NCBI GenBank assembly: GCA_964421975.1
Contig: CAYQZL010000004.1
Span: 818-64,817, forward strand
Length of the DNA: 64,000 bases
DNA from: an uncultured Rikenellaceae bacterium
GTDB taxonomy: Bacteria; Bacteroidota; Bacteroidia; Bacteroidales; VadinHA17
Reading direction: 5' to 3'
Shown: piece after piece, positions 17,583-63,801 of the stretch
Layout of the letters: each line of letters opens with the position of its first letter
How positions within the stretch are numbered: the stretch's first letter is position 1
Program-made: the position numbers and the translations under genes
Notes under the pieces: generated by a model
The model's database searches: none
Seen by the model: the letters and a program-made list of their open reading frames with translations, nothing else
What the model was told of the DNA's origin: nothing

Positions 17583-17668
17583 CTCCTCAGCACTCGACAC
17601 TCACCACTCACCTCTCACCTCTCACCTCTCACCGCTCACCTCTCACCGCTCACCTCTCACCTCTCACC
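17583..17668. repeat. CTCACCT/GCTCACC heptamer tract (right flank), in the same orientation as the left tract
   Basis: The sequence reads cactcaccactcacctctcacctctcacctctcaccgctcacctctcaccgctcacctctcacctctcacc. It contains the alaS stop codon and the last codons of alaS. Confidence 0.85.
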
Positions 17669-28111: not shown

Positions 28112-28148
28112 TAGAAAATTCTGATTTGGATGAGACTTTTATTAGTTA

Positions 28149-28239
28149 CACAGAGTTACACAGAGGGTTCACAGAGTTTCACAGAGTTTCAAAGTATTAA
28201 CCTCTGTGGCCCTCTGTGAATCCTCTGTGTAACTCTGTG
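28149..28239. repeat. 4+4 word-hairpin array: (CACAGAG)x4 in 10/11/10-bp register, a 15-nt loop, then (CTCTGTG)x4
   Basis: CACAGAG at 28149, 28159, 28170 and 28180. CTCTGTG at 28202, 28212, 28223 and 28233. The outer 17 bp pair perfectly (cacagagttacacagag with ctctgtgtaactctgtg). The array sits between the convergent hutU and ispF genes and abuts the ispF stop. Confidence 0.9.
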
Positions 28240-28725
28240 TTATTTCTTAAAATTCTCCAGTAATACAGAAGCCATTGCCGCTATACCTTCCTCACGACCG
28301 ACAAATCCCATTTTTTCTGTAGTAGTGGCTTTAACTGATACAGCATCAATATTAATGCCGAGGATCGATGAAATAACCGATCTCATTTCGTGAATGTACG
28401 GGGCTATTTTTGGTTTCTCCAGACAGACGGTGCTGTCGATATTGATGACTGAAAATCCTTTTTCCCTTATTATTTCCAATGTTCTTTTAAGGAGTATCTT
28501 GCTGTCAATATTCCTGAATTCCGGGCTGGTATCGGGGAAATGATGTCCGATATCTCCAAGTGCTGCTGCACCGAGCATTGAATCGCATATAGCATGCAGA
28601 AGAACATCACCATCGGAATGAGCCACGCAGCCTTTATCCGATGGTATCAGGATACCTCCGAGCCATAATTTTAAACCTGTTTCGAGCCGGTGGAAGTCAA
28701 TACCCTGACCTGTCCTCAGGTTCAT
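28240..28725 (-). CDS. ispF: 2-C-methyl-D-erythritol 2,4-cyclodiphosphate synthase
   Basis: 161 aa. GIDFHR, HSDGDVLLHA and GDIGHHFPD. Its start overlaps the porV stop (ATGA). Confidence 0.95.
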   Translation of the reverse strand: MNLRTGQGIDFHRLETGLKLWLGGILIPSDKGCVAHSDGDVLLHAICDSMLGAAALGDIGHHFPDTSPEFRNIDSKILLKRTLEIIREKGFSVINIDSTVCLEKPKIAPYIHEMRSVISSILGINIDAVSVKATTTEKMGFVGREEGIAAMASVLLENFKK

Positions 28726-34551: not shown

Positions 34552-36042
34552 ATGTACAAAATGAAAGTCTTGCCAGTCGTTTTGATCGCTGGATTAGTTC
34601 TCATTTCATGTAAAGGAGGTAAGCAGGCGGGTGTATCATCCACCACCGGATGGGAATATAATAATCCTGATAATGGCGGTTTTGAAGTGGTTATGGGTGC
34701 AGAACAAAAAACCGGACCAGGTCTTGTCCTTATAGAAGGAGGCCGGTTCACGATGGGACAGGTGCAGCAGGATGTTCTGTTTGACTGGAACAATAAGCCG
34801 AGGACTGTCACAGTATCATCATTTTATATGGATGAAACTGAAATAAGCAACGTTGATTACCGGGAGTATCTGTACTGGTTGAGGCGTGTTTATGTTGATT
34901 ATCCCGAAGTATACAGGAAGGCATTGCCTGATACTCTGGTATGGAGAAGTCCGATGGGCTTTAACGATCCTTATGTTCAGTATTATTTTCGTCATCCTGC
35001 ATATAACACTTATCCTGTTGTCGGTGTCAGCTGGCTCCAGGCCAATGATTACTGCCTGTGGAGAAGTGACAGGGTCAATGAGCAGTTACTTATTGATGAG
35101 GGTGAACTGAATCCTGATCCTGAACAGAAAAACCAGAATAACTTCAATACTGAAGCATATCTGGTGGGTCAGTATGAAGGTGTGGTAAATCAGCTCAGGG
35201 AGAGCCTGAATCCCAATCAGACCGAGAGAAGAACAACATTTGAAGACGGTGTCCTTCTTCCCAATTACCGGCTGCCTACTGAAGCAGAATGGGAATTTGC
35301 TGCATATGCTCTCAGAGGTAATACATATCAGGAGAGGATCTATGAAAGAAGAATATATCCATGGGATGGCCATAATGTAAGGAATTCCCAGAAAAGAAGC
35401 CGGGGTGAGATGATGTCAAACTTTGTCCGCGGAAGAGGAGATATGATGGGTGTTGCAGGAAGCCTTAACGATAATGCAAGTATTACAAGCGATGTAAAAT
35501 CATACTGGCCAAACGATTATGGTCTTTACTGCATGGCTGGTAACGTTAACGAATGGGTACAGGATGTATATCGTCCTCTGACCTCAGAAGATGTTGATGG
35601 TTTCAATCCTTTCAGGGGTAACGTATATACTGACCTTCGCCGTGACGCAAACGGAAGAGTCGTTACCAAAAATAACCTTGGTAAACTTTATATCGATACA
35701 GTTAAGGATATTGATGTGGCTAACAGATATAATTATCAGAAGGGCGATTACAGGAACTACAGGGATGGAGACCTTCAGTCTTCAATATCCACCGACTGGA
35801 GAGTTGATGACGGAGAAAAGGGTTCAAACAGAATGTATTCCCAGGATCAGGGAGCCGAAAGCCAGAGCGACTTTGTGACATTGATAAATGACAATGCAAG
35901 AGTATACAAGGGCGGATCATGGAAAGACAGGGCCTACTGGCTCAATCCTTCCACAAGAAGATTCCTTGACCAGGAAAGTTGCAGAGACGACCTGGGATTC
36001 AGATGTGCAATGATAAGAGTTGGAAGTCCGGCAGGATTCTGA
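34552..36042 (+). CDS. gldJ: Gliding motility lipoprotein GldJ (SUMF1/FGE-fold, non-enzymatic family)
   Basis: 496 aa with the lipobox LISCKGG. FGE-fold motifs RLPTEAEWEFAA, GNVNEWVQD, YKGGSW and GFRCA. The porV-porU / gldJ-murF neighbourhood matches Flavobacterium johnsoniae. Confidence 0.75.
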   Translation: MYKMKVLPVVLIAGLVLISCKGGKQAGVSSTTGWEYNNPDNGGFEVVMGAEQKTGPGLVLIEGGRFTMGQVQQDVLFDWNNKPRTVTVSSFYMDETEISNVDYREYLYWLRRVYVDYPEVYRKALPDTLVWRSPMGFNDPYVQYYFRHPAYNTYPVVGVSWLQANDYCLWRSDRVNEQLLIDEGELNPDPEQKNQNNFNTEAYLVGQYEGVVNQLRESLNPNQTERRTTFEDGVLLPNYRLPTEAEWEFAAYALRGNTYQERIYERRIYPWDGHNVRNSQKRSRGEMMSNFVRGRGDMMGVAGSLNDNASITSDVKSYWPNDYGLYCMAGNVNEWVQDVYRPLTSEDVDGFNPFRGNVYTDLRRDANGRVVTKNNLGKLYIDTVKDIDVANRYNYQKGDYRNYRDGDLQSSISTDWRVDDGEKGSNRMYSQDQGAESQSDFVTLINDNARVYKGGSWKDRAYWLNPSTRRFLDQESCRDDLGFRCAMIRVGSPAGF

Positions 36043-44730: not shown

Positions 44731-44780
44731 AAGAAAATATGGGATTGTTGGTATGGATGTTGAAAGTTAGTTATTTTGTA

Positions 44781-44825
44781 GTACTTAAAGTATTTAAAGT
44801 ACTTAGAGTACTTAGAGTACTTAGA
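44781..44825. repeat. 9-bp tandem repeat x5 (gtacttaaa, gtatttaaa, gtacttaga x3)
   Basis: Read directly from the sequence. Confidence 0.9.
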
Positions 44826-44870
44826 GTTTTTAACGTGGAACTCCGCTTTCGCCAGGGCTTAGGCTGGCAA

Positions 44871-44950
44871 ACACTGAAACACTGAAACACTGAAACTCTG
44901 AAACTCTGAAACACTGAAACTCTGAAACTCTGAAACACTGAAACTCTGAA
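44871..44950. repeat. 8-bp tandem repeat x10 (A = acactgaa, B = actctgaa, order AAABBABBAB), ending 10 nt before the folC ATG
   Basis: Read directly. An eleventh partial unit (acataatg) follows. Confidence 0.9.
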
Positions 44951-44960
44951 ACATAATGTA

Positions 44961-49950: not shown

Positions 49951-52446
49951 ATGAATTCCCAGAAGCAGAAACCGGCTATTCCATGGCCACTGATCATTCT
50001 ATTTTTGGCGCTGTCGGCAGGTGAACTTGTTGTCGGTCTTTTGTATTACAGGCACCAGAGAACTCATATGCTCAACGACAGCAAACAGGAATTATCGGCA
50101 ATTGCCAATCTTATGGTCAGAACACTTACCCAATGGCGAAATGAGCGTATTAATGACGGCAATTCACTCAGGGAAAATATGTCGGTTTACACAAGATTTT
50201 CGGAATATGTTAATAATCAGAATGATAGTAAGCTGCGTAATGAACTTACCCGGAATCTGCAGGCACTGGTTGATAATTATGACTATGCTTCAGCGATCTT
50301 TCTTGACAGTGATTTCCTGGTAAGGCTTAATTATCCCGAAAAGGACTCCATAATTGGTAGCCGCCTCAGAAAAACACTACCGGAGATCTTAAAGAAGGGA
50401 GAAGTCAGAATAACGGATATTCACAGGATAAGCGAGGTAAACTATGATCACCTCGATCTGGTGATCCCCTTAAGTAAAAAGGATCAGACAGAGATTTCAA
50501 TTTTCGGTACTTTGGTTCTCAGGATCGATCCCCGGGAAGTATTATTCCCTCTCATACGTACATGGCCTTTGCCCAGTCGCACTTCCGAAGCTTATATTGT
50601 CCGGCAGGATGGTAATGAAGTGATTTACCTCAGCAGGCTGAAATATTCCGACAGTACAGGTTATCTCAGGAAGTCCATTACTGAAGAGAAGCTTGAAGCC
50701 GCTATGGCCTTACAGGGTATACAGGAGAGTCATGATGCCATCGATTACCGTGGGATAAAAGTTGTGGCAGCCATGAAGAAAGTTCCGGAATTGCCATGGT
50801 TCATGGTAGCAAAAGTTGACCGTGAGGAGATACTGGGAACACTGAATAATGAGATGCGCCAGATATTCATGATCACCTTCCTCTTCATCTTGATCACGGC
50901 GCTTCTGCTGGGTTTATTATGGTGGAATCAGCGGGTTAGGTTTTACAGGAGCAGATATGAGATCGAACTCGAACATCTTGCCCTGGTGAGGCATTTTGAC
51001 TATATCCTCAAATATGCCAACGATGTCATAATGTTATTCAATAAAGATCTTGAAGTAATAGAAGCCAACGACCAGGCTCTTGATAAATACCAGTTTGAAA
51101 GGAACGAACTTATCGGGAAAAGGCTTACAGATCTGTTGCCGGAAAAGAAACTGGATAATTATAAAGATATCCTGGTAAGACTCGATAGTGAAGGACACCA
51201 TACCTTCGAAGGTGAACATATCAGGAAAGACGGAACAATATTCCCGATAGAGATCAGTGCCAGACGAATACTGATGGAGGGAATGGTTTATTACCAAACC
51301 ATCGGCAGGGATATTACTGAAAGAAAACAATCTGAAGAAACACTCAGGGAAAGCGAGGAAAGGTTCAGAAAGATATTCGAGGAGAGTCCGATAGGGATGG
51401 CTATGACAGGCAAGGATCTTGTTATTATAAGAGCTAATTCAGCTTTCTGCAAAATGATGGGATATTCCGAGGATGAACTCCCTGGAATGACATTTAAAAG
51501 TTTCACTCATCCTGATTATATAGTCCGCGATGAATATGAGCTTCTGCGATTGATTGCCAATGAGATACCAATTTATCATACAGAGAATGAATATATAAGG
51601 AAAGACGGACTGATGATATGGGGTTCAACAACCGTCAGTATTGTAAGGAATAACAATGATGAGGTCCAGTTCTTTCTGGGAATGGTCGAGGATGTCACAT
51701 CCAGGAAGATGGCGGAAGCCGAGCTTATTGCAGCCAAAGAGAAAGCTGAAGAAAGCGACAGGCTTAAAACGGCATTCCTGCATAATGTTTCCCACGAGAT
51801 ACGTACACCAATGAATGCAATACTCGGATTCTCATCTCTCCTCAGTGAACCCGGGGTCACTGAGGCAGAAAAGAACCAGTACATTGATATTATCTTCCAG
51901 AGTGGGAACCAGCTGTTGTCGATAATTAATGATATCGTAGACCTGGCAGGGATTGAAAGCGGACATGTCAAGATTAAAATAGGAAAGGTGAATATTAATT
52001 CAGTTCTGCGGGATTTATCGGAACAGTATGCATATAAAGTCAAAGCCCAGAATATAGGACTGATCCTGCATGCACCTCTGTCTGATGAAAAGTCAGAGAT
52101 CCTGACCGACAGAACAAGGCTTATCCAGATCGTCTCGAACCTCCTGACCAATGCATTCAAGTTTACAAAGACAGGTAAGATAGATTTTGGTTATGAGATG
52201 AAAAACGGATTTTTCGAGTTTTTTGTAAGTGATACAGGAATAGGAATACCTCAGGAATATCATTCTCTCATCTTTGAGAGGTTCTACCAGGTCGACAGCA
52301 CTGTCTCACGCCAGTATGCAGGCACCGGACTTGGACTTTCAATATGCAAGGCATTTGTGGGCCTACTTGGCGGTGATATCTGGGTTAACTCAAAACCGGG
52401 TGAGGGATCGACTTTTTGTTTTACCATTCCATACAACCGGGAATGA
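49951..52446 (+). CDS. Sensor histidine kinase: two TM helices flanking a periplasmic sensor domain, two PAS domains, HisKA and HATPase_c
   Basis: 831 aa. H-box SHEIRTPMN, G1 box DTGIGI and G2 box GTGLGLS. PAS-like segments are present. No receiver domain and no adjacent response regulator. Confidence 0.85.
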   Translation: MNSQKQKPAIPWPLIILFLALSAGELVVGLLYYRHQRTHMLNDSKQELSAIANLMVRTLTQWRNERINDGNSLRENMSVYTRFSEYVNNQNDSKLRNELTRNLQALVDNYDYASAIFLDSDFLVRLNYPEKDSIIGSRLRKTLPEILKKGEVRITDIHRISEVNYDHLDLVIPLSKKDQTEISIFGTLVLRIDPREVLFPLIRTWPLPSRTSEAYIVRQDGNEVIYLSRLKYSDSTGYLRKSITEEKLEAAMALQGIQESHDAIDYRGIKVVAAMKKVPELPWFMVAKVDREEILGTLNNEMRQIFMITFLFILITALLLGLLWWNQRVRFYRSRYEIELEHLALVRHFDYILKYANDVIMLFNKDLEVIEANDQALDKYQFERNELIGKRLTDLLPEKKLDNYKDILVRLDSEGHHTFEGEHIRKDGTIFPIEISARRILMEGMVYYQTIGRDITERKQSEETLRESEERFRKIFEESPIGMAMTGKDLVIIRANSAFCKMMGYSEDELPGMTFKSFTHPDYIVRDEYELLRLIANEIPIYHTENEYIRKDGLMIWGSTTVSIVRNNNDEVQFFLGMVEDVTSRKMAEAELIAAKEKAEESDRLKTAFLHNVSHEIRTPMNAILGFSSLLSEPGVTEAEKNQYIDIIFQSGNQLLSIINDIVDLAGIESGHVKIKIGKVNINSVLRDLSEQYAYKVKAQNIGLILHAPLSDEKSEILTDRTRLIQIVSNLLTNAFKFTKTGKIDFGYEMKNGFFEFFVSDTGIGIPQEYHSLIFERFYQVDSTVSRQYAGTGLGLSICKAFVGLLGGDIWVNSKPGEGSTFCFTIPYNRE

Positions 52447-53157: not shown

Positions 53158-53224
53158 TCTTTATCCTATCAATACTTGAAAGATGATTCTATTTTGTATA
53201 TTTTTAAGTGAATTAAATCAGAGT

Positions 53225-54661
53225 ATGAACAATACAGCTATTAACCCGGTTCCCGTATTAACTTTCGGGCTTATCGGAAACTTACTGCTTTCGTGTTCCT
53301 CCGGGACCGGTAAAACTGAGAGAAACACATCAGGACCTAACCTGATTTATGTTTTTGCCGATCAATGGAGGGCCGAAGCAACAGGGTATTCAGGGAACAG
53401 GCAGGTCAGAACGCCGAATCTTGACAGACTTGCAGGAGAATCGGTAAATTTCGTAACGGCAATTTCAAACTGTCCTGTAAGCAGCCCGGCCAGAGCTTCG
53501 ATGATGACAGGTCAGTATCCTCTTACTCATGGAATCTTCTTCAACGATAAACCTTTGGGGGATGACAGAATTTCTATAGCTGAAATTTATCGTGAACATG
53601 GATATAATACCGCCTATATCGGTAAATGGCATCTGAACGGGCATCCGAAAGGAGAGAGCCGCGACGAACACCGAAAATTACCTGTGCCATCTGAAAGACG
53701 TCAGGGTTTTGATTACTGGAAGGTACTTGAATGTACACACGATTATAATAATTCACTTTATTATGATAATGACAATGTTCAACATATCTGGCAGGGATAT
53801 GATGCAGAGATTCAGACCGATTCTGCAATAGCTTATATCAGGGCCGGAAAAGATTCACCATTTATACTGTTTTTATCCTGGGGGCCGCCTCATGAACCAT
53901 ATCATACAGCACCAGACAAATACAGGGATATGTATTCTGACTGGCAGAGTATACTGTTACGTCCAAATGTTCCTGACAGCTTGTCGGAGAGAGCAAAAAA
54001 AGATATTGCAGGTTATTATGCCCATATCGCAGCCCTTGATGAATATCTGGGAAAAATACTGGCTGCCGTAAAAGAATCAGGTATTGAAGAAAATACCATC
54101 TTCGTATTTACCAGTGACCATGGGGATATGCTTTTATCGCATGGTTTGACAAAAAAACAGAAACCATGGGATGAATCAATAAGAGTTCCTTTGCTGCTCA
54201 GGTATCCCTTAAAGATAAAAAAAGCCCGGAAAGTAAAAATCCCTTTCGGTACAGTGGATATTATGCCAACATTGCTTGGACTGAGTGGTTTGCCTGTACC
54301 GGATGGGGTCGAAGGAACAGATTTCTCTGATTATCTGTTGGGTAAGAACAAACCGGATATAAAATCAACACTGATAATGTGCCCCGTTCCTTTTCACCAA
54401 TGGAGTTTTGATAACGGAGGTAAAGAATACCGGGGTGTCAGGACAGAAAGATATACCTTTGCAAGAGATCTGAATGGTCCCTGGTTGTTATATGATAATA
54501 AAACTGATCCTTTTCAGATGAAAAACCTGGTAAATAAGGTTGACTATAAAAAGATACAGAATGAACTTGAAGTTGAACTGAACCGGTTACTGGATAAATC
54601 AGGAGACAAATTTATGGAAGCGGATTATTACATGAAAAAATGGAATTATGATTACGATTAA
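53225..54661 (+). CDS. Sulfatase family S1 lipoprotein, Ser-type
   Basis: The ATG at 53225 gives MNNTAINP... with the lipobox LLSCSSG. Signature CPVSSPARASMMTGQYP places Ser at the formylglycine position (SxPxR). DHGD is present. Confidence 0.85.
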   Translation: MNNTAINPVPVLTFGLIGNLLLSCSSGTGKTERNTSGPNLIYVFADQWRAEATGYSGNRQVRTPNLDRLAGESVNFVTAISNCPVSSPARASMMTGQYPLTHGIFFNDKPLGDDRISIAEIYREHGYNTAYIGKWHLNGHPKGESRDEHRKLPVPSERRQGFDYWKVLECTHDYNNSLYYDNDNVQHIWQGYDAEIQTDSAIAYIRAGKDSPFILFLSWGPPHEPYHTAPDKYRDMYSDWQSILLRPNVPDSLSERAKKDIAGYYAHIAALDEYLGKILAAVKESGIEENTIFVFTSDHGDMLLSHGLTKKQKPWDESIRVPLLLRYPLKIKKARKVKIPFGTVDIMPTLLGLSGLPVPDGVEGTDFSDYLLGKNKPDIKSTLIMCPVPFHQWSFDNGGKEYRGVRTERYTFARDLNGPWLLYDNKTDPFQMKNLVNKVDYKKIQNELEVELNRLLDKSGDKFMEADYYMKKWNYDYD

Positions 54662-54783
54662 CGCGGCCTCTGTATAAGTTTATTATCAAAATATTCAGAC
54701 AAAACACAACAACTAAAGGCAATCCGGCTTTATATTTGGAGTTTTAAATTTCCCTCTGAATACCAATGGGAGCTTTAAAAAAC

Positions 54784-54880
54784 CTTTGTGTCCCTTTGTG
54801 TGTACTTTGTGTCCTTTGTGGTTATAAAGCATTGTTGTTTAACCACAAAGAGCACTAAGGAAATCACAAAGAGCACAATG
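54784..54880. repeat. 4+4 word-hairpin array, CACAAAG variant: (CTTTGTG)x4, a 17-nt loop, then CACAAAG/CACTAAG/CACAAAG/CACAATG
   Basis: CTTTGTG at 54784, 54794, 54805 and 54814. The inverted words are at 54844, 54853, 54865 and 54874. The inner 10-bp stem is perfect (ctttgtggtt with aaccacaaag). Confidence 0.9.
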
Positions 54881-54941
54881 GGGTAGTAATTATTTTACTA
54901 TGCATTTAAGGATAATATTTTGATTTATAAATAGATAAAAG

Positions 54942-56093
54942 ATGGGAAAGAAAAGAAGCATTGAGGAGATCAACGGGAAGATCCGCAGCGGAAAAGCTGT
55001 GGTTCTGACTGCTGAACAGGTATCAGCTATGGCAAAAAAAATGACCCCTGCAGAGGTATTCGACAGGGTTGATGTGGTAACAACAGCAACATTCGGACCT
55101 ATGTGCTCGTCGGGTGTTTTTATCAATTTTGGTCATACCACTCCTCCTATGCGCATGGAAAGGATAACACTTAATAACGTTCCCGCATATGGCGGAATAG
55201 CTGCTGTTGATGCATATCTTGGAGCTACAGAAACAGCGATGCCACAGGATGAATATGGAGGCGCGCATGTTATTGAGGAACTTATTGCCGGAAAGGATGT
55301 TCTGCTTCAGGCTTCTGCGAAAGGGACAGATTGTTACCCCAGGACTGAATTAAAGACTCTGATAAACAAAAGCACGATCAATGAATTCATAATGTTCAAT
55401 CCGCGGAACGCTTATCAGAACTATAATGTTGCGGTAAACAGTACAAAAAAGATCAAATACACCTACATGGGTACTCTTCTTCCCTCATTCGGGAATGCAA
55501 ATTTCTCGACTTCGGGTGAACTGAGCCCCCTCCTTAATGATCCTGAACTGCGGACAATAGGGATAGGAACAAGGATCCTTATGGGAGGTACCATAGGATA
55601 TGTTGCCTGGCACGGGACGCAATTCAACACCGGAAAACCTTTGAATGAAAACGGTATTCCGGTCGGTAATGCTGCAACCCTGGCACTTATAGGTGATGCA
55701 AAACAGATGAGCACGAGGTTCATAAAAGCAGCATATTTCGAAAAATACGGTGTGTCAATGTTCGTTGGAATAGGGATACCGGTTCCCGTTATTGATGATG
55801 ATATGGCCCGCAGGGTCTCTGTCTGCAACCGCCAGATAGAAACCAATGTTATGGATTACGGATCGGAAAATCACGATATACTGGGACGTGCCGATTATGA
55901 ATCCCTTTTCTCCGGAAAAATTCGTCTGGATGGGAAAATGATACGTACAGCACCTCTGTCGAGTGTTAAAATAGCACGCGAAATTGCTGATATCCTCAGA
56001 AATGAAATTGCCTCGGGCCGGTTTTTACTTACTCAGCCGGTTTCATCTTTCACTAAGACAAGCGGACTGAATAGTCTGGAGATCAGAATTTGA
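54942..56093 (+). CDS. DUF39/COG1900 homocysteine biosynthesis protein (MA1821-like)
   Basis: 383 aa. VDVVTTATFGPMCSSG, GGAHVIEELIAGK and NPRNAYQNY... are typical of the COG1900 family. No CBS domains. Confidence 0.8.
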   Translation: MGKKRSIEEINGKIRSGKAVVLTAEQVSAMAKKMTPAEVFDRVDVVTTATFGPMCSSGVFINFGHTTPPMRMERITLNNVPAYGGIAAVDAYLGATETAMPQDEYGGAHVIEELIAGKDVLLQASAKGTDCYPRTELKTLINKSTINEFIMFNPRNAYQNYNVAVNSTKKIKYTYMGTLLPSFGNANFSTSGELSPLLNDPELRTIGIGTRILMGGTIGYVAWHGTQFNTGKPLNENGIPVGNAATLALIGDAKQMSTRFIKAAYFEKYGVSMFVGIGIPVPVIDDDMARRVSVCNRQIETNVMDYGSENHDILGRADYESLFSGKIRLDGKMIRTAPLSSVKIAREIADILRNEIASGRFLLTQPVSSFTKTSGLNSLEIRI

Positions 56094-56211
56094 TGTTTAA
56101 CTTTAAAAGAAAACCATGAAACCCACATGATTGAACACTATCACAAACACGTATAAATTTAATATACAATCATGTGTGGTTCAATCATACCATGAAAATT
56201 AAAATTATATT

Positions 56212-56625
56212 ATGATGAAAAGCAAAAGATTTGTTCTGACATTTCCCCCGGATGCAACCGGTCAGCCTATAACATATAACCTTATCAAGAAATATGATAT
56301 AATGGTTAATATCGTAAAAGCCAATGTTTCTCCGGGAGAAATAGGACACCTGGTAATAGAGATGACGGCTCCTGCCAAAGTGCTGAAGGAAGGAATGGAC
56401 TATATCAAGCAAAATAATGTTGAATGTGAGCCTATCGATAAGAAAATAACCTGCAGACAGGATCTCTGTATCCACTGCGGAGCCTGCTCTGCTGTTTGTT
56501 TTGCCGGTGCCCTTACAATGAAATCCGACACAGCCGAACTTCTTTTTGAACCCGAAAAATGTGTGGTATGTGAGCTTTGTCTGAAAGCCTGTCCGTTGAA
56601 ACTCTTTTCAATCGATCTTGGCTAA
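56212..56625 (+). CDS. NIL domain + 2x[4Fe-4S] ferredoxin protein (MA1822-like)
   Basis: 137 aa. NIL-like N-terminus (QPITYNLIKKYDIMVNIVKANV), then CIHCGACSAVC and CVVCELCLKACP. Confidence 0.8.
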   Translation: MMKSKRFVLTFPPDATGQPITYNLIKKYDIMVNIVKANVSPGEIGHLVIEMTAPAKVLKEGMDYIKQNNVECEPIDKKITCRQDLCIHCGACSAVCFAGALTMKSDTAELLFEPEKCVVCELCLKACPLKLFSIDLG

Positions 56626-57379
56626 AAATCATGAATATCAGCCCAGATTCTACCGCCAGTCAATGGGTAACCACAGGTGGAAGAGCTTCAGATCGGTTTA
56701 CAGGGAAACCGATCTGTGGATCGCAGTAGATACAGAAAGCTATTCAGAAACAACCGTAAATTATACATCTGACCGTATCAGATATTACCGGAATATACTT
56801 GATAAATATATCAGGAATCACCCTGAATTCAGGGATTCACTTGTACCTGTTGAAACAGGAAAAAACACACACAGGATTATCAGGGAAATGTCAGGTGCTG
56901 CACGTAAAGCCGGTACCGGACCTATGAGTGCCGTGGCAGGCGCAATAGCGGAATTTATATGTAAAGACCTTTGTAAGGAATCCGGAGCTTCTGAAGTAAT
57001 TATTGAAAATGGAGGAGATATCTTTTTGAAGCTGAAAAATCAGGCAACCATATCGGTTTATGCAGGCAATTCACCCCTTTCGGGGAAAATACGCCTTGTC
57101 ATCAAACCTGAAGACACACCTCTTTCCGTATGTACCTCATCCGGAACAACAGGTCATTCTCTTAGTTTCGGTAATGCAGATGCATGTACAATAGCCTGCC
57201 GCTCAGGAGCACTGGCTGATGCATATGCAACTGCATTCTGCAACGAAGTCAAAAATAAAGATATGGTTCCTGAAATTACAGAAAAAGTCCTTCAAAAGCC
57301 TGATATTATTTCCGTTGTGATCATTATGGATGACAAGGTGGGTCTCGGCGGAAAGTTAACAGTCAATTTGCATTCCTGA
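56618..57379 (+). CDS. UPF0280/COG2122 ApbE-like protein
   Basis: 253 aa. The TTG start overlaps the upstream stop (cTTGgcTAA). Motifs PRFYR, ETDLWI, GPMSAVAGAIAE, ENGGDI, SSGTTGHSLSFGNADA and ADAYATA. Confidence 0.75.
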   Translation: MAKNHEYQPRFYRQSMGNHRWKSFRSVYRETDLWIAVDTESYSETTVNYTSDRIRYYRNILDKYIRNHPEFRDSLVPVETGKNTHRIIREMSGAARKAGTGPMSAVAGAIAEFICKDLCKESGASEVIIENGGDIFLKLKNQATISVYAGNSPLSGKIRLVIKPEDTPLSVCTSSGTTGHSLSFGNADACTIACRSGALADAYATAFCNEVKNKDMVPEITEKVLQKPDIISVVIIMDDKVGLGGKLTVNLHS

Positions 57380-57423: not shown

Positions 57424-57834
57424 ATGAGCAGGATAATAATGAACAGACTGGATTATTCCAGGATTTTGAAATGTATAGATGATGCGAAAAACCTGAAAAC
57501 AATAAACGTTGACGAAGCCGAAAAGCTTCTGAACGAACTCAATTCAGCAACTATTGTTGATCCTCATGAAGTTCCTGTTGATGTTGTTACGATGAATTCC
57601 ATAGTTAAGATCAGATTCGTGAATACAAACAAACAGGTTCAGTTCCGGATCGTTTATCCCGATGAGGCTAATGTCAGAGAAAATAAAATATCTATTTTTT
57701 CTCCCGTGGCCACAGCTCTTATCGGATATAAGGTCAACGATGAAATAGAATGGATTGTTCCTTCCGGGATGACTAAAATAAGGATTGAAGAGATCATTTA
57801 TCAGCCTGAAGCGGCAGGAGATTATAATCTTTAG
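57424..57834 (+). CDS. GreA/GreB C-terminal-domain protein (Rnk-like regulator)
   Basis: 136 aa. VTMNSIVKIRF...ISIFSPVATALIGYKVNDEIEW matches the Rnk/GreA C-terminal fold signature. Confidence 0.75.
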   Translation: MSRIIMNRLDYSRILKCIDDAKNLKTINVDEAEKLLNELNSATIVDPHEVPVDVVTMNSIVKIRFVNTNKQVQFRIVYPDEANVRENKISIFSPVATALIGYKVNDEIEWIVPSGMTKIRIEEIIYQPEAAGDYNL

Positions 57835-57922
57835 ATCATTTCCGGGAACCAGCTTCTTCCCCTCTTTATGTTCTTTTGTGATCGCCCTGGTGCCCTACTA
57901 TATAACTAATTTAAAAAACTTA

Positions 57923-58042
57923 CACAGAGATCCACAGAGGTTCACAGAGATCCACAGAGAATCGATTTACTAACTCTGTGGAACTCTGTGACTTTTTCAC
58001 CCACCGAAGCCTTGGCGCAGGTGGGCTCTGTGGGACTCAGTG
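57923..58042. repeat. 4+4 word-hairpin array (CACAGAG x4 at an exact 10-bp period) whose right arm is split by a 35-bp insert carrying its own hairpin
   Basis: CACAGAG at 57923, 57933, 57943 and 57953. CTCTGTG at 57974, 57984 and 58026, and CTCAGTG at 58036. The insert at 57991-58025 contains cccacc...ggtggg. Confidence 0.9.
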
Positions 58043-58109
58043 TAATTGAGAGTTATTTTTTTTGATGTTCCCATTTTTTATTGATGGGTGTAAACTTCGT
58101 GGCAAATTC

Positions 58110-59546
58110 TTATTCCTTTCCTCCAGATCTAAATGGGACTTCCTCAACATTCAGTTCCGGGAATGACTTACCCAGTTCTTTTTTGATGTTGTTATATTCC
58201 GGATCACCTGCAAGGTTTTTCCATTCCAAGGGGTCATTCTCGTGATCGTAAAGCTCTTCGGAACCATCTTCATATCTTATATACCTCCATCTTTCCGAAC
58301 GGATTGAATGACGGTTTCGACCCTTGGTAGTCAAAGCCGGATAATCCCACTTTTCATTAACATTCTTAAGCAGAGGTACAATACTACGTCCCTCATTTTC
58401 TGTGTTACCGGGAATTCCGCAAAGCGCTGTCAGAGTGGGATAAAGATCTAACAGGTTTACCATTGCTTTACAGCGCTGTCCGGGCTTTGTCATACCGGGC
58501 ACTTTGATTATCAGGGGCATGCGGCATGATTCTTCCCATAATGTGAATTTTTTATACCTCAGTTTCTCACCGAGATGCCATCCATGATCTCCCCAGAGAA
58601 CCACAACAGTATTGTCAGCATATTTGCTTTTTGCAAGGGCATTGAGAACAACGCCGACACAAGTATCAGCATAGTTTATACATGCGAGATATGCCCGGAT
58701 TGCTTCTTTCTGCTTATTGTATTTTTTTACCGAGAAGTAATTCTTCTGAGGCTGAAGAGCAGCAGAAGGAATATCATCATAATCATTTTCATTTACTTCG
58801 GGAAGAACCAGGATTTCCGGATCAAATTTGTCATAAAATTCCTTCGGAACAAACCATGTGAGATGAGGCCGGAATATCCCGCAGGCAAGAAAGAATGGTT
58901 TATCATGATCCAATGACAACTGATCTGCCGCCCATTTTGCATTAAGATAGTCCGGGGTATCTTCCAATACCCCATCTGTAGGTCCCCAGTCGAGATTGCC
59001 ATCCACCTCCCCCACAGGTATACCGTTTACCATATAGCCTTCCTGATTAACAGTATTCCCATAACTCCCTTCAGTGTTAACATGGAGATCCCATGACTGT
59101 GGATCTGCCCATGGACCGTTGGCATTATGAAATATTTTGCCTCTGGCCATTGAGAAGTAACCATTATTCGAAAACCATTTCGGGAGGGTAACGGCATTTT
59201 TCAGGAGCTCTGAATCCCGCATAAAGCTCTCATTTTCATAAATACCACTTGTTGAAGGTCTGTATCCCGTCAGAAGGGCAACTCTTGATGGATTGCTCAG
59301 CGGGGCAGCACAATAAGCCCTTTCAAAAACAACACCCTCCGATGCCAGCCTGTCCATATTCGGAGTCTGTGTCTGCGGATGCCCTCCAAGAAAACCTGTC
59401 CAGTCATTAAGATCGTCAATGGCTATAAACAGGATATTATAAGGCTGCTTCTGCTCTTTTCCGGTTTTATTCCCACAGGAAGACAAAAGACCAGCTAATG
59501 CAGCACCAATAAGAATGGTACCGGTATTTAATGTCGGACAGTTCAT
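58110..59546 (-). CDS. Sulfatase family S1 lipoprotein, Ser-type, iduronate-2-sulfatase-like
   Basis: 478 aa with the lipobox LLSSCGN. The signature APLSNPSRVALLTGYRPSTSGIY has Ser at the formylglycine position and resembles the IDS motif [20 protein letters not shown]. Confidence 0.8.
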   Translation of the reverse strand: MNCPTLNTGTILIGAALAGLLSSCGNKTGKEQKQPYNILFIAIDDLNDWTGFLGGHPQTQTPNMDRLASEGVVFERAYCAAPLSNPSRVALLTGYRPSTSGIYENESFMRDSELLKNAVTLPKWFSNNGYFSMARGKIFHNANGPWADPQSWDLHVNTEGSYGNTVNQEGYMVNGIPVGEVDGNLDWGPTDGVLEDTPDYLNAKWAADQLSLDHDKPFFLACGIFRPHLTWFVPKEFYDKFDPEILVLPEVNENDYDDIPSAALQPQKNYFSVKKYNKQKEAIRAYLACINYADTCVGVVLNALAKSKYADNTVVVLWGDHGWHLGEKLRYKKFTLWEESCRMPLIIKVPGMTKPGQRCKAMVNLLDLYPTLTALCGIPGNTENEGRSIVPLLKNVNEKWDYPALTTKGRNRHSIRSERWRYIRYEDGSEELYDHENDPLEWKNLAGDPEYNNIKKELGKSFPELNVEEVPFRSGGKE

Positions 59547-59548
59547 GT

Positions 59549-60667
59549 TCAGATCTTAATAAATAACTTGTTTTTATACAGCCAGTAACATAAATACCAG
59601 AAACCTGCCCATACTGCGAGACTGGTCAGGATACTCACCGTAAGATCCCCGGTCGGGGATAAAAACAATTTTATAAACGGTCCTGTAATTTTTTCTATCA
59701 GATCTCCGCTTCCTATGTGGAAAAATATATAAATGAAGATACTGTTCATCCCTACTACAATAAAGAACCATGCAATTTTCGGGAATAATTTCTTAACATC
59801 TATAAGCCAGTAGCATAAGCAAAGGGCAAGGATCGTCCATCCTCCGCTGGCAAATACAAATGACGATGTGGCGATTTTCTTGATAATAGGTGTTACACTC
59901 AGAAGATCGAGAGCATAACCTATTGCCAGCGCAGTTATCCCGGCAAATAAAAGTATTTTAATTTTCTCTTTAGGTTTTTTTTCACTCATCAATACTTTAC
60001 CACAAAGGACACCCCATACAGTATGTGCTGTAGTTGATACGAAGTTCAGAGTTGCCCATATACTTGCTTTATCCACTCCTTCTATAGTATTGTTGAACCA
60101 TGAACCCAGGTTTTTATAGGGAACCCATGGCTGATTGAATCCCTCGACCGGGAAAAAACGATAGGCAAGATCAATCAGCAGCAGGATAATCAGAGTGAAC
60201 AGGATCTGAAACTTAAAACTCTTATTCCTTATAAGGAAGGCAACAATGTAGGTCACGGACAGTTGTGCAAGAACATTCTGGAACCTGAACACAAGATGAT
60301 CAGCCTCTATAAAATATAATGCCCAACCGAAAAATAACAACAGAAATGATCTTTTGAATGCATGCCGGTAAATTTTATTTATACTGTCACCTTTTCTTAT
60401 CCTGTTGGCAACTGCAAAAGGGATTGCAACACCCACAATAAACATAAAGAATGGCTGAATAAGATCCCAGAAGTGAAGACCATGCCATTCATGATGTTCA
60501 AGTTGTGTGCCGAGAAACTGAAAGAACCCGCTGTCAATCTTAAGCAGTTTACCATAAAGGTGAGTGGCTTCACCTGCAAGAAGAAACATTGTAAAACCGC
60601 GGAAGAAATCGACTGAAGTAACTCTTCCCGGCAAAGGAGAAAGTGGTGTTTGAGGATTTGAATTCAT
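59549..60667 (-). CDS. HGSNAT-like (DUF5009/COG4299) polytopic membrane acyl/acetyltransferase
   Basis: The ATG at 60667 (MNSNPQ...) is preferred over the track start at 60745. RVTSVDFFRGFTMFLL and HHEWHGLHFWDLIQPFFMFIVG match the family's N-terminal motifs. About 10 TM helices. Its stop lies 3 nt from the sulfatase start. Confidence 0.65.
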   Translation of the reverse strand: MNSNPQTPLSPLPGRVTSVDFFRGFTMFLLAGEATHLYGKLLKIDSGFFQFLGTQLEHHEWHGLHFWDLIQPFFMFIVGVAIPFAVANRIRKGDSINKIYRHAFKRSFLLLFFGWALYFIEADHLVFRFQNVLAQLSVTYIVAFLIRNKSFKFQILFTLIILLLIDLAYRFFPVEGFNQPWVPYKNLGSWFNNTIEGVDKASIWATLNFVSTTAHTVWGVLCGKVLMSEKKPKEKIKILLFAGITALAIGYALDLLSVTPIIKKIATSSFVFASGGWTILALCLCYWLIDVKKLFPKIAWFFIVVGMNSIFIYIFFHIGSGDLIEKITGPFIKLFLSPTGDLTVSILTSLAVWAGFWYLCYWLYKNKLFIKI

Positions 60668-60881
60668 ATCAGTTTTGGTTAGATTTGATCGTATAAAAAA
60701 CTTTTTTGATCTGGATTTCTGAAAAATAATAATTGAGTAAGTCAAACTTAAGAATTTTTAAAATCATATTTCAAACACCCTGAAATAAAAAAGATTTTCA
60801 GCAAAATTCATCCTGCCTGTAATTTTATTAGTTTTACAAAAATGACGGTCAGCAGGCAGAATTTAATAAAATTTAAAACCT

Positions 60882-61748
60882 ATGAATAAAGCATCCACTT
60901 CCGGAATTTCGGGATTTAAGATAATTATCCTGATCCTGTCAATAAACCTAATATGGATTGAAACTGGCAGATCTCAGACGAAGATTTATATAAATACTGA
61001 TCTTGAAGGAATAAGCGGTGTATTCAAATTCTCCCAGACAAGAGAGAAAGATACACCTCTTAATATACAGGCATGTGAGTATTTCATGGGTGATCTGGCT
61101 GCAGTTATCAGAGGTCTCCGTGATGGAGGAGCAGATGAAATTGTTGTCCTTGACGGACATGGCACGCAGGCAATTCTGCCTCACCTGATGGTCCCCGGAG
61201 CAAGATATATAACCGGACTCCCGAGATATGGAGCAGGAAATCTTACGGATCTGGATTCAACATTTGCAGGACAGATCCTTCTTGGGTTTCACGCAATGAT
61301 GGGTACGCCTGATGGAGTATTGTGCCATACACAATCATCTAGATCGGAAAACCGCTACTGGTATAACGGTGTTGAATCGGGAGAAATAGTTCAGAGCTCT
61401 GCTGTGGGAGGTTATTTCGGTGTACCCACAATTATGGTTACTGGAGATGAAGCAACATGTCGTGAAGCAAGAAAATTCCTGGGTGAAAACATAGTAACTG
61501 TTGCGACCAAGCGTGGCATTTCGAGGGAAGCTGCTGAGCTCTATCCTTTTGAGGAAACAAGGAAAGCTCTTTATGAAGGAGCCAAAAAAGCCATGAGTGT
61601 AATTAAATCATGTAAACTTTACATCCTTAAAACTCCAATTCATATAAAAGAACAGCGGCTTAACCTGGATCCCTCCCTGCCAAAACCAGTAGTTGTTACA
61701 AGAGAAGGTTATGCTGAGAATGCACTTCATATCTTTACCTGGAAATAA
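60882..61748 (+). CDS. M55 (DppA D-aminopeptidase-like) family protein with an N-terminal hydrophobic extension
   Basis: 288 aa. KIYINTDLEGISGV and GADEIVVLDGHGT match M55. These motifs are preceded by about 33 residues that include FKIIILILSINLIWI. Confidence 0.65.
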   Translation: MNKASTSGISGFKIIILILSINLIWIETGRSQTKIYINTDLEGISGVFKFSQTREKDTPLNIQACEYFMGDLAAVIRGLRDGGADEIVVLDGHGTQAILPHLMVPGARYITGLPRYGAGNLTDLDSTFAGQILLGFHAMMGTPDGVLCHTQSSRSENRYWYNGVESGEIVQSSAVGGYFGVPTIMVTGDEATCREARKFLGENIVTVATKRGISREAAELYPFEETRKALYEGAKKAMSVIKSCKLYILKTPIHIKEQRLNLDPSLPKPVVVTREGYAENALHIFTWK

Positions 61749-61764
61749 AAATATCATCCCCTTT

Positions 61765-63801
61765 ATGAAAAAGAATATTCTGACGTTCATTCCAGTCACT
61801 TTAATTACATTATTCTGTTCTTTGAACACTGGAAAATCACAAACCAATTCTCTGCCCATGATCGGTGCCCAGGTCTTTATCGAGCCCGGGCAAACAAAGC
61901 AGGATATTGAAACCTGGTTCAGAATCCTTGACAATTCAGGTATGAAGGTATGCCGGATAAGAATGTTCGAGACACACATGCACAGAGCTGACGGATCCTG
62001 GGATTATTCATTGTATGATGAAGCATTCAGAGCTGCAGAAAAATATGATATTAAGATCTTTGCCACACTTTTCCCTGCTGACTCCAAAAACAGCGTGGGA
62101 GGTGAAAAATTCCCGGAAAGTGAAGAGCATTTCAGACAGATAACAGCTTACATAAAAAATATGGCTGAACACTTCAGGCATTATAAATCACTATTTGGCT
62201 GGGTCTTGCAGAATGAACCGGGAACAGGAGGAAGCATACCTGACAATGATTTCACAAGGGAACAGCTCAAAAAGTGGAAGGCCAGTCAGGTGGCATCAGG
62301 ATATGACAGTAAGGGGTATATGACAGAGACTTTCGAATCAAAAAGGTTCCTGGTTGATTATGAGACATGGTATCTTAGATGGATCGCATCAGAGATCAGG
62401 AAGTATGATAAGGATCACTATCTGCATGTGAATAATCATCAGATCTTTGAAAATGTTGCGGAATATGATTTCCCTTCCTGGAGGAAATTCCTTACAACAC
62501 TTGGAGCATCGGCTCATGCAAGCTGGCATTTCGGTTATTTCAACCGCGATCAATATACGATGGCTCTGGCTGCAAATTGTGATATTATACGTTCCGGGGC
62601 AGGAAATCTCCCGTACTGGATTACTGAACTTCAGGGAGGAAATAATATATGGAGCGGTAATGCCCCCATGTGCCCTACCGGTGAAGAGATAACACAATGG
62701 CTGTGGACCGGTATTATGAGTGGTGCAAAGGGTGTCATCTTCTGGACACTTAATCCCCGTGGATCTGCTGATGAAGCTGGTGAATGGGCTATGATAACTT
62801 TTCAGAATGAACCTTCAGAAAGACTCAGCGCAGCTTCAGAGGTTATTAATGCTCTGAATAAAAATTCAAACCTTTTCAGCAATGCTGTACCGGCAGACAA
62901 AAAGATAAGCATTCTCTATACAAGAGAATCACTGTGGGCTGAATTGCGCAGCCAGATGGGCGGACAGCAGATTGAGGGACGTTCAAAGGGAGCTGTGATA
63001 AAATCAGCTCTCGCTTATTATGAAATATTATCGGAAAATGGTATCGGATGTAATTTCAGTGAAATTAATGAATTTGACTGGGAAAAAGAAGATTTTTCAG
63101 GTATGACGGTAATACTTGCTCATCAGATATCAATCCCTTCAATCTTCTGGAACAGGATTGAGAATTTTGTCAGTAAAGGTGGTAAGCTGATTGTAAGCGG
63201 GCTTACCGGATTTTTTGATGAAAACATGCATAATGTGATGAAAACTGGATTTCCTCCTGAAAAACTGTTTGGAAGTACCATAAGCGAGTTCAGACACATG
63301 GGTGATAAATTCGAAATTAATCTGATCAGTCCTGAAATAATATTACCTGCTCATTGGATGCAGGGGATAATAAAAAACCATAATTCTAAGGCTATCGGTA
63401 AATCCGGTGATGAAATAACTGCCATCCGAAATCACTATGGGAATGGTGAGGTGGTATGGATACCATCCATGATCGGTCTGGGAGCAAGAAGGGGAAGTAG
63501 TGAACCATTATCAGCTTTTCTCAGGCAGGAACTGGAGAATAGCCTCATTTACAACCCGGTCAATCTGAAAAAATATGAAAAAGGCATTCTGATGCGAACC
63601 ATGAAATCGAACAGGTCATATCTGAGTGTTATAATAAACAAGAATACGGATACCAGGAATCTGGAAATAAGTATTCCAGAGTCATTGAGACCTGTTGTTA
63701 TTTTTTCAAATAAATCTGGAAGTGTCAGCAACAGAAATATTTGTACTATTCATCCGGAAGAAACATTAATAATAAGGTGGGATCAGTTAGTCGATCCGTG
63801 A
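61765..63801 (+). CDS. GH42-like (clan GH-A) glycoside hydrolase, beta-galactosidase-like, secreted
   Basis: The ATG at 61765 gives the signal peptide MKKNILTFIPVTLITLFCS. VCRIRMFE...DGSWDYSLYDEAFRAAEKYDIKIF, the acid/base-type LQNEPG, the nucleophile-type ITELQGG, and a central GH42M-like domain. Confidence 0.6.
   Translation: MKKNILTFIPVTLITLFCSLNTGKSQTNSLPMIGAQVFIEPGQTKQDIETWFRILDNSGMKVCRIRMFETHMHRADGSWDYSLYDEAFRAAEKYDIKIFATLFPADSKNSVGGEKFPESEEHFRQITAYIKNMAEHFRHYKSLFGWVLQNEPGTGGSIPDNDFTREQLKKWKASQVASGYDSKGYMTETFESKRFLVDYETWYLRWIASEIRKYDKDHYLHVNNHQIFENVAEYDFPSWRKFLTTLGASAHASWHFGYFNRDQYTMALAANCDIIRSGAGNLPYWITELQGGNNIWSGNAPMCPTGEEITQWLWTGIMSGAKGVIFWTLNPRGSADEAGEWAMITFQNEPSERLSAASEVINALNKNSNLFSNAVPADKKISILYTRESLWAELRSQMGGQQIEGRSKGAVIKSALAYYEILSENGIGCNFSEINEFDWEKEDFSGMTVILAHQISIPSIFWNRIENFVSKGGKLIVSGLTGFFDENMHNVMKTGFPPEKLFGSTISEFRHMGDKFEINLISPEIILPAHWMQGIIKNHNSKAIGKSGDEITAIRNHYGNGEVVWIPSMIGLGARRGSSEPLSAFLRQELENSLIYNPVNLKKYEKGILMRTMKSNRSYLSVIINKNTDTRNLEISIPESLRPVVIFSNKSGSVSNRNICTIHPEETLIIRWDQLVDP

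Follow-up and report, generated by a model that had tools for sequence, protein, structure and literature searches.

A conserved three-gene operon for predicted homocysteine synthesis from sulfide in uncultured Bacteroidales

Methanogens and Desulfovibrio are already known to form homocysteine by the DUF39 pathway, and genes of this kind are already annotated by public pipelines. According to genetic experiments in Desulfovibrio, homocysteine synthesis needs all of three protein families, namely COG1900 (DUF39), a NIL-domain ferredoxin and COG2122, and the mutants can be rescued with methionine (PMC5764234, PMC4045070). In the Methanosarcina acetivorans COG1900 protein MA1821, Cys54 is essential and Cys131 is conserved (PMC12068725). 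For MJ0100, the orthologue in M. jannaschii, work cited in PMC4045070 reports that the CBS domain senses S-adenosylmethionine (SAM). A literature search with the enzyme name and Bacteroid* retrieved no paper on any member from the Bacteroidota.

The DNA analyzed here (the window, i.e., the whole stretch of 64,000 nucleotides) encodes the same three families in a row at 54942-57379 on the forward strand, and all three reading frames were found where the original prediction had placed them (Table 1). The trio forms an operon of an ordinary kind that was inherited vertically, rather than an archaeal cassette of recent insertion. The operon is common to at least 80 Bacteroidales species, and every related Bacteroidales locus of sufficient length retains the gene order COG1900, NIL-ferredoxin, COG2122 at 75–87% identity. 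Judged from sequence features and from analogy with characterized systems, its product is very probably homocysteine, the precursor of methionine, made from aspartate semialdehyde and sulfide by a predicted L-aspartate-semialdehyde sulfurtransferase (hereafter L-ASST). The three family assignments were borne out by family-model searches, and the relationship to MA1821, MA1822 and MA1715 was judged through such models and archaeal proxies rather than by direct alignment.

Table 1. Coordinates of the operon and its surroundings in the window.
Feature	Position	Strand	Remarks
Sulfatase A (context)	53183..54661	+	PF00884, E=4e-55
Candidate Bacteroidetes-type -7 promoter box TAtaTTTG	54731..54738	+	Read from sequence; upstream of hairpin array
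Word-hairpin array	54779..54886		CTTTGTG words, then CACAAAG words; long bulged hairpin
COG1900a / HcyBio protein, 383 aa	54942..56093	+	Predicted sulfur-inserting subunit of L-aspartate semialdehyde sulfurtransferase; no CBS domain
Spacer between COG1900 and NIL-ferredoxin genes, 118 nt	56094..56211	+	Insert of ~100 nt with imperfect 24-nt inverted repeat, 56117-56140 / 56160-56183
NIL-domain + 2x[4Fe-4S] ferredoxin, 137 aa	56212..56625	+	Presumed electron-donating subunit (MA1822 type)
COG2122 / UPF0280 ApbE-like protein (MA1715 type), 253 aa	56618..57379	+	Proposed helper in sulfur trafficking or persulfide formation; starts with TTG
Rnk/GreA-like ORF	57424..57834	+	PF01272, E=1e-24; NF004396 'nucleoside diphosphate kinase regulator', 119 bits vs. 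cutoff 109
Word-hairpin array	57915..58050		Four CACAGAG copies, then CTCTGTG copies, inner GC hairpin; between convergent Rnk and sulfatase genes
Sulfatase B (context)	58110..59546	-	PF00884, E=7e-42

The HcyBio (DUF39) model PF01837 spans the COG1900 protein (E=1e-145, 485 bits; residues 19–363 on profile positions 1–349 of 349), and thousands of homologues with at least 80% identity carry the annotation "homocysteine biosynthesis protein" or "L-aspartate semialdehyde sulfurtransferase." Two of its cysteines, Cys55 (GPMCSSG) and Cys131 (GTDCYPR), align with cysteines of the homologue clusters P0121–P0124, including the archaeal DUF39+CBS representative, and match by reported position Cys54 and Cys131 of MA1821; more distant COG1900 clusters in the alignment are devoid of both. 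The relatives of P0124 recovered by homology search belong to Hadarchaeota, Methanobacteriota, and MSBL1, which identifies the DUF39+CBS cluster as archaeal. Archaea also have members of the COG1900a family, the identity to the archaeal representative being about 45%. The description of the trio as archaeal-type, and in this sense unusual for a bacterium, was nevertheless not borne out, since Desulfovibrio needs these three genes as well, as its genetics shows (PMC5764234, PMC4045070). No match to the CBS model PF00571 was obtained with the COG1900 protein, which stops at residue 383. This domain does not define the family, however, as functional COG1900 enzymes of Desulfovibrio also lack it (PMC4045070). 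Searching the PDB with the protein sequence gave no match. The AlphaFold2 model (pLDDT 95) likewise retrieved nothing significant in a PDB fold search (best E=0.065, TM below 0.12), and the predicted fold offers no mechanistic lead, which is true of the whole family and not just of this locus.

The second gene lies directly 3′ of the COG1900 gene in all related loci of sufficient extent. Its product combines an N-terminal NIL domain (PF09383, E=6e-16) with Fer4/Fer4_7 matches (E about 1e-9; Fer4_7 E=9e-10) and two complete CX2CX2CX3C motifs, CIHCGACSAVC and CVVCELCLKAC. The spacer preceding it has a length of 12–24 nt in most relatives and of 20–22 nt in the closest ones, which share with the window the initial "tgtttaac"; unrelated inserts of 90–130 nt occupy the same site in other lineages. 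The arms of the inverted repeat in the window's insert (I2) are 79% complementary, and the fold of the spacer is not significant (z=-1.7). A repeated element was considered for this insert and rejected, the arm of the 56117-56183 repeat having no convincing second copy in the window.

The third protein, by its sequence, clearly belongs to the UPF0280 family. It is matched by the NCBIfam PRK04334/UPF0280 models, best by NF003323 (255 bits, E=5e-76; curated equivalog cutoff 271), to which residues 3–249 align at profile positions 3–246 of 250, and by PDB entry 2O34 (E=5e-31). The Pfam copy used yielded no match, and a precomputed match to PF27030 (AbpE_bact) is on record for the gene. Its TTG start is situated within an 8-nt overlap with the ferredoxin gene, TTGGCTAA, which is kept, with the genes co-oriented, in 72 of 77 loci (a set that counts the window and two metagenome contigs from its species). 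Where the ferredoxin and COG2122 genes lie apart, which is the case in two loci, an ATG stands at the same aligned codon. Moreover, the stretch 5′ of the internal ATG encodes 15 residues that are conserved at the protein level, variation being greatest at third codon positions, and the N-terminal motif Y7-x-P9-R10-x-Y12-R13 is near-invariant. The predicted coupling was supported: the ferredoxin and COG2122 genes are judged to be translationally coupled via the TTG in TTGGCTAA. On a metagenome contig from the window's species, the recorded gene call begins COG2122 at the downstream ATG; unlike this call, the comparative evidence puts the start at the overlapping TTG.

By analogy with the characterized systems, whose literature supplies both the chemistry and the subunit roles given here, the COG1900a protein would carry a persulfide on Cys55 and pass its sulfur to aspartate semialdehyde at the aldehyde carbon. 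Electrons for reducing the thioaldehyde-type intermediate to homocysteine would come from the NIL-[4Fe-4S]2 ferredoxin, and the COG2122 protein would deliver or activate sulfide for the COG1900 cysteine. Besides the pattern of putative catalytic cysteines and the conserved operon, the predicted synthesis of homocysteine from aspartate semialdehyde and sulfide is supported by RNA elements in related species. A SAM-I riboswitch (RF00162) precedes the orthologous operon in about a quarter of these species (19 of 80; the 19 loci were detected by nhmmer with an hmmbuild profile, and Rfam confirmed 11 of them). The aptamers are located ~100–200 nt upstream on the same strand and score 67–73 bits against a gathering score of 44.4. 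Their presence in sister species links the operon to the methionine/SAM regulon by evidence other than protein homology, and constitutes RNA-level evidence for the pathway assignment as well as an RNA-level counterpart of the archaeal CBS domain. In the window itself no riboswitch was detected, either at the Rfam gathering score over the whole window or at E<=1 between 54500 and 58200. With both the SAM riboswitch and the CBS domain missing, the window operon is connected to methionine status solely through its orthologues. No other methionine gene was found in the 64-kb window.

The loss of the riboswitch found in sister species would suit a genuine L-ASST that serves as a back-up or under specific conditions, with a canonical O-acyl-homoserine sulfhydrylase or trans-sulfuration route encoded elsewhere as the main source of homocysteine. 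Redundancy of this kind has a precedent, since M. acetivorans grows methionine-free without L-ASST (PMC12068725). Such a subordinate role is compatible with the identity assigned to the enzyme, but we consider it rather unlikely, as identities of 75–87% and a conserved coupling across 80 species argue for strong selection on the operon.

The leader of the window operon shows features of its own. The Bacteroidetes -7 box has the consensus TAnnTTTG, and the segment "ggcaatccggctttatatttggag" around the candidate box is conserved upstream of COG1900 in the related loci L003 and L006; the L003 copy, with no array, lies about 38 nt from the ATG. A scan for sigma-70 promoters and terminators was no more informative than shuffled sequences, and its model is not appropriate for Bacteroidota. 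If the candidate box is used, the upstream array would sit in the ~200-nt 5′ leader of the operon. This array follows a pattern of 7-nt words with a period of ~10 nt, first as direct and then as inverted copies, and folds with a minimum free energy of -42 kcal/mol (z=-5.2; matched by none of 200 shuffles); in Rfam it retrieved only far-sub-threshold miRNA hairpin models. Arrays of the same kind are found upstream of COG1900 in L004, L006, and L008, and are absent in L003, L007, L075, and L079. One could speculate that the sub-clade of the window lost SAM-I and now carries in its leader a transcribed array, which could represent an undescribed REP-like family of environmental Bacteroidales acting in cis through mRNA stability, termination or protein binding. 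We regard this as an improbable reading, but if it were true, the window operon would be under a new form of regulation instead of being constitutive.

Substrates differ among the several COG1900 subfamilies, and L-ASST may be able to stand in partly for the coenzyme M synthase MMP16 (PMC12068725). The trio might thus perform another reductive sulfur insertion, either on another aldehyde, as in MMP16, or toward another thiol. This is very unlikely for the window proteins. On TIGR03287, the MMP16 model, the COG1900 protein scores 114 bits, far under the cutoff of 364, and Fer4 found no match in its 383 residues, so that it has no inserted ferredoxin domain. Its cysteine pattern is that of COG1900a, and the Bacteroidales share the partnership with NIL-ferredoxin and COG2122 as separate subunits that characterizes the homocysteine system. 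In addition, SAM-I riboswitches before the orthologues are what would be expected for an operon of the methionine pathway.

Homocysteine synthesis by an inherited operon also has to be weighed against the origin originally proposed for the trio, a mobile or recently acquired archaeal-type cassette in a sulfatase locus, delimited by two hairpin arrays. The trio does lie between two sulfatase genes with an array on either side, and it shares the COG1900a family with archaea at the identity given above. The sulfatase genes, however, are variable neighbors: sulfatase A is present upstream in four of the eight closest relatives (L003, L004, L005, L008) and absent in the other four (L006, L007, L075, L079). 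Sulfatase B opens a sulfated-glycan cluster with NagX (NF046061), an M55 peptidase, and a GH42-like gene, and its orthologue was found downstream of the trio in none of these eight and in no other related locus. A functional tie between the sulfatases and the module was rejected on the grounds that their adjacency is not conserved. The Rnk/GreA-like gene was likewise rejected as a part of the module, as it follows the trio just in the closest relatives (L003, L004, L005, L075).

Both arrays are real, the downstream one folding far better than shuffled sequences as well (-64.7 and -65.1 kcal/mol for the respective strands, z=-8.1 and -9.2), with the qualification that this second array comes after a fourth gene, the Rnk/GreA-like one, rather than directly after the trio. 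The two arrays differ in their words, a sister copy of the downstream one occurs 27 kb away at 28148-28240, also between convergent genes, and in L004 and L005 an array is placed between COG2122 and Rnk instead. L003 has the order sulfatase, trio, Rnk with no arrays, and L006 has an upstream array with no sulfatase. Hairpin arrays are thus dispersed elements at variable intergenic sites and not cassette ends. Given also that the trio is syntenic and not patchy in its occurrence, being present in every related locus long enough, that its GC content (0.42–0.45) is typical of the window (0.418) and of the AlaRS and urocanase genes (0.44–0.46), with GC3 matching housekeeping genes too, and that no tRNA, target-site duplication, terminal or flanking direct or inverted repeats were found and no integrase or transposase among the neighbors (sulfatases, histidine kinase, Rnk), a mobile or recent origin is scarcely credible.

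The analysis confirms that, among uncultured anaerobic Bacteroidales, a large clade carries the DUF39 route to homocysteine as a standard, conserved operon. Little in this is biologically new. Genome-based predictions of methionine auxotrophy in such organisms should allow for the operon.

Among the known systems, that of Desulfovibrio (DvMF_1464, DvMF_0262, DvMF_0044; Dde_3007; DVU2938) resembles the window in having the same three families, a COG1900 protein devoid of CBS, and a bacterial host living with sulfide. In D. vulgaris Miyazaki, however, the three genes are dispersed, as judged by their locus tags, whereas the window has them in one tight, translationally coupled operon; sister Bacteroidales add the SAM-I riboswitch. 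The L-ASST of M. acetivorans (MA1821-MA1822) likewise consists of a COG1900a protein with two conserved cysteines and an adjoining NIL + 2x[4Fe-4S] subunit (PMC12068725). Its COG2122 helper MA1715 is, according to the accounts in PMC12068725 and PMC5764234 (the latter citing Rauch et al.), linked to sulfide assimilation. Differences concern the C-terminal CBS pair of the archaeal enzyme, which has about 500 aa whereas the window protein stops behind its COG1900 domain, and the position of MA1715, which is not adjacent to MA1821-22 as opposed to the three co-oriented, coupled genes of the window. A bacterial cluster of neighboring genes predicted for the DUF39 pathway, DET0921-DET0919 of Dehalococcoides (PMC5764234), belongs to another phylum. 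Finally, the MMP16/ComF coenzyme M synthase (COG1900d) is a member of the same COG1900 superfamily with analogous aldehyde-to-thiol chemistry (PMC12068725), but differs from the window protein in the ferredoxin domain inserted in its COG1900 domain and in cysteines located elsewhere.

Three adjacent genes on one strand encode proteins of the COG1900, NIL-ferredoxin (NIL-Fd), and COG2122 families, which are those described in the literature for homocysteine synthesis in Desulfovibrio and Methanosarcina acetivorans. The ORF list, Pfam, and NCBIfam bear out the families, positions, and common strand of the original prediction, and family models place all three proteins with the MA1821, MA1822, and MA1715 families of M. 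acetivorans, a likeness judged through these models and through cluster representatives. PF01837 (Pfam [quoted passage not shown]) spans the COG1900 protein end to end (E = 1e-145). In the NIL-Fd protein, Pfam shows a di-cluster ferredoxin after a NIL domain, and both CX2CX2CX3C motifs read as intact. Aligned along its full length, the COG2122 protein scores 255 bits (E = 5e-76) with the NCBIfam PRK04334 (UPF0280) models, slightly below the 271-bit equivalog cutoff. It also matches PDB 2O34, a hypothetical protein of 250 aa (E = 5e-31), and its orthologue on a same-species metagenome contig carries a precomputed match to PF27030 (AbpE_bact).

Features of the probable homocysteine locus and of related loci (L numbers)
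Feature	Position	Strand	Remarks
COG1900 / HcyBio gene	54942-56093	+	383 aa, ATG start; mechanical ORF list
NIL-Fd gene	56212-56625	+	137 aa, ATG start; mechanical ORF list
COG2122 gene	56618-57379	+	253 aa, TTG start; mechanical ORF list
Sulfatase A	53183-54661	+	Pfam
Sulfatase B	58110-59546	-	Pfam
Rnk/GreA-like ORF	57424-57834		between trio and downstream array; Pfam, NCBIfam
Upstream array	54779-54886		strong fold, z = -5.2
Downstream array	57915-58050		strong fold, z = -8 to -9
Third array, CACAGAG type	28148-28240		between convergent genes
Arrays in relatives	L004 2340-2437, 4850-4945; L005 10350-10437; L006 7850-7939; L008 7901-7939		
SAM-I aptamer	L009 7793-7901; L010 7797-7904; L029 7797-7904; L050 7796-7904	same as operon	15 further loci

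The COG1900 protein possesses two cysteines, Cys55 in GPMCSSG and Cys131 in GTDCYPR, whose columns in an alignment with representatives of 50%-identity clusters are common to the nearest clusters and lost in more distant ones. Both are shared by P0124, the 504-aa DUF39+CBS representative of one of the nearest clusters (45% identity, E = 8.5e-103), whose relatives in a homology search are named Hadarchaeota, Methanobacteriota, and MSBL1 archaea. Because these columns are common with the archaeal DUF39+CBS cluster and TIGR03287 (MMP16, CoM synthase) scores only 114 bits (cutoff 364), the protein groups by sequence with the homocysteine-type enzymes of archaea rather than with MMP16. An AlphaFold2 model of it (mbfa0303243ec; pLDDT 95.2, pTM 0.92) has a mostly beta fold, and searches of the PDB by sequence and, with this model, by fold (Foldseek, best E = 0.065) gave no significant match. 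The COG1900 family as a whole, and not this locus in particular, appears to be without an experimentally solved structure, and its mechanism thus gets no help from any solved structure.

When one genome was scanned for each GTDB species, the best 80 of 90 confirmed stretches, nearly all from uncultured Bacteroidales or Rikenellaceae MAGs, contained orthologues with 75–87% identity. Every listed locus of sufficient length has the order COG1900, NIL-Fd, COG2122 on a single strand. Its presence is not patchy among these loci, and the description "archaeal-type" is not supported, since Desulfovibrio needs the three families for homocysteine synthesis (PMC5764234, PMC4045070).

The translational coupling noted for the last two genes is supported: the NIL-Fd gene ends ...ATC GAT CTT GGC TAA, and the COG2122 gene reads TTG GCT AAA AAT... 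in the other frame. Of 77 loci, among them the window and two same-species metagenome contigs, 72 have this 8-nt overlap with TTG. On one such contig (L001, 3647-4363), the recorded gene call starts COG2122 45 nt further on, at an ATG, which leaves 238 aa. The 15 residues ahead of this internal Met are conserved at the protein level across 71 related loci (Y7, P9, R10, Y12, and R13 hardly vary, if at all), and variation over these codons is highest at third positions (0.36 vs. 0.16 and 0.09), so the stretch reads as translated. Since, in addition, the overlap is kept, the NCBIfam profile alignment begins at residue 3, and two loci whose genes have drifted apart (L064, L069) carry ATG at the identical aligned codon, the evidence favours the overlapping TTG (253 aa) over the internal ATG.

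Evidence independent of protein homology comes from the leader. In 19 of the 80 listed loci, roughly one in four of the related Bacteroidales species listed, nhmmer detected a SAM-I riboswitch aptamer approximately 100–200 nt upstream of COG1900, and all 11 aptamers submitted to Rfam were confirmed as RF00162 (67–73 bits; gathering score 44.4). As a SAM-sensing leader is expected in a methionine pathway, this riboswitch control in sister species argues for such a role. The CBS domain of the M. jannaschii orthologue is reported to sense SAM (PMC4045070), and the SAM-I riboswitch may be its RNA-level counterpart. Whereas archaeal relatives of the P0124 type combine DUF39 with CBS, a Pfam scan found no CBS domain in the window protein; the aptamer is likewise absent from the window (Rfam) and from its closest relatives.

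The trio had also been regarded as a mobile or recently inserted cassette, framed by sulfatase genes and hairpin arrays. The sulfatase genes do lie on both sides, but composition, mobility marks, and synteny all speak against a recent insertion or a mobile cassette. GC contents of the three genes (0.449, 0.418, and 0.424) resemble those of the whole window (0.418), AlaRS (0.444), and urocanase (0.456), and GC3 is also typical. No integrase or transposase was found among the neighbours, no direct or inverted repeats bracketing the trio, and no tRNA in the 64-kb window, the remainder of which carries core chromosomal genes (AlaRS, RecR, IspF, Mur ligases, and PorV, PorU, and PorP of type IX secretion). 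Rather, the trio is what the related loci keep, and the sulfatases vary. Most of the eight closest relatives have a PAS histidine kinase upstream (49951-52446 in the window), usually with a 215-aa ORF; sulfatase A is present in L003, L004, L005, and L008 and absent from L006, L007, L075, and L079. In the wider clade, the surroundings differ considerably: upstream are presumably an ABC-2 permease gene and one of nuclease/phosphatase type, and convergent downstream genes are presumably FGGY kinase-like and FAD-oxidase-like. In none of the other loci examined is the trio followed by sulfatase B, NagX, or the genes beyond. The stretch 58110-63801 is probably a cluster for the use of sulfated glycans; besides sulfatase B, it encodes a NagX-like transmembrane acetyltransferase, an M55 D-aminopeptidase-like protein, and a GH42-like glycosidase. 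Neither this cluster nor an FGE-sulfatase-domain protein 20 kb from it (34552-36042) is related to the homocysteine operon.

Both hairpin arrays are real, although the downstream one lies past the Rnk/GreA-like gene and they are not cassette ends. Each is built of 7-nt words, CACAGAG or CACAAAG, repeated about every 10 nt, with three to four copies in direct orientation and then three to four inverted; the arrays form long bulged hairpins (z from -5 to -9) and match no Rfam family. Confined to intergenic DNA, often between convergent genes, they occur in eight of the 80 listed loci at shifting sites: upstream of COG1900 in L004, L006, and L008, in the COG2122–Rnk interval of L004 and L005, and not at all in L003, despite the same gene order as the window. 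In this they resemble a dispersed REP-like element, and they may represent a REP/BIME-like element of this Bacteroidales sub-clade. Upstream of the first array, a segment conserved in L003 and L006 holds TAtaTTTG (54731-54738), which we take to be a perfect Bacteroidetes-type -7 box; given this candidate, the array is probably transcribed within a leader of about 200 nt. That it replaced the SAM riboswitch there is speculative and quite unlikely. Word arrays of other kinds occur upstream of the AlaRS gene (17607-17669; about 6–7 direct copies of a GGTGAGA/CCTCTCAC-type unit) and of a Mur-ligase-like gene (44780-44953; about five copies in tandem of a unit of approximately 11 nt that contains CTGAAAC).

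Within the operon, the spacer between COG1900 and NIL-Fd (56094-56211) measures 118 nt, compared with 20–22 nt in the closest relatives and normally 12–24 nt, and by this comparison contains an insertion of about 100 nt with a weak 24-nt inverted repeat (56117-56140/56160-56183). Unrelated inserts of 90–130 nt occupy the same spot in other lineages (L044, L052, L053, L059, L064, L069, L076, and L080), which suggests an insertion hotspot.

Methionine rescues Desulfovibrio mutants in the three families, and the route does not pass through homoserine (PMC5764234); D. alaskensis requires the DUF39 protein Dde_3007 (PMC4045070). MA1821-MA1822 of M. acetivorans is now named L-aspartate semialdehyde sulfurtransferase, with MA1715 as sulfur-trafficking helper (PMC12068725). 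Earlier work, as cited in PMC5764234, found a conserved MA1821 cysteine persulfidated in vivo and proposed that sulfur passes to aspartate semialdehyde and that a reduction dependent on ferredoxin follows, COG2122 helping with sulfide use or persulfide formation. By analogy, the Bacteroidales proteins very probably perform the same chemistry: a COG1900 cysteine would pass sulfur to aspartate semialdehyde, NIL-Fd would supply the ferredoxin-dependent reduction to homocysteine, and COG2122 would aid sulfide use or persulfide formation. The families, cysteines, conserved operon, and riboswitches before orthologues all side with the homocysteine synthesis originally predicted. Our literature search found no paper on this pathway in Bacteroidota; in public annotation the orthologues already go by the names "homocysteine biosynthesis protein" or "L-aspartate semialdehyde sulfurtransferase". 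The essential Cys54 and conserved Cys131 of the M. acetivorans enzyme (PMC12068725) compare with Cys55 and Cys131 here, and the trio is very probably a further case of an already known homocysteine pathway.
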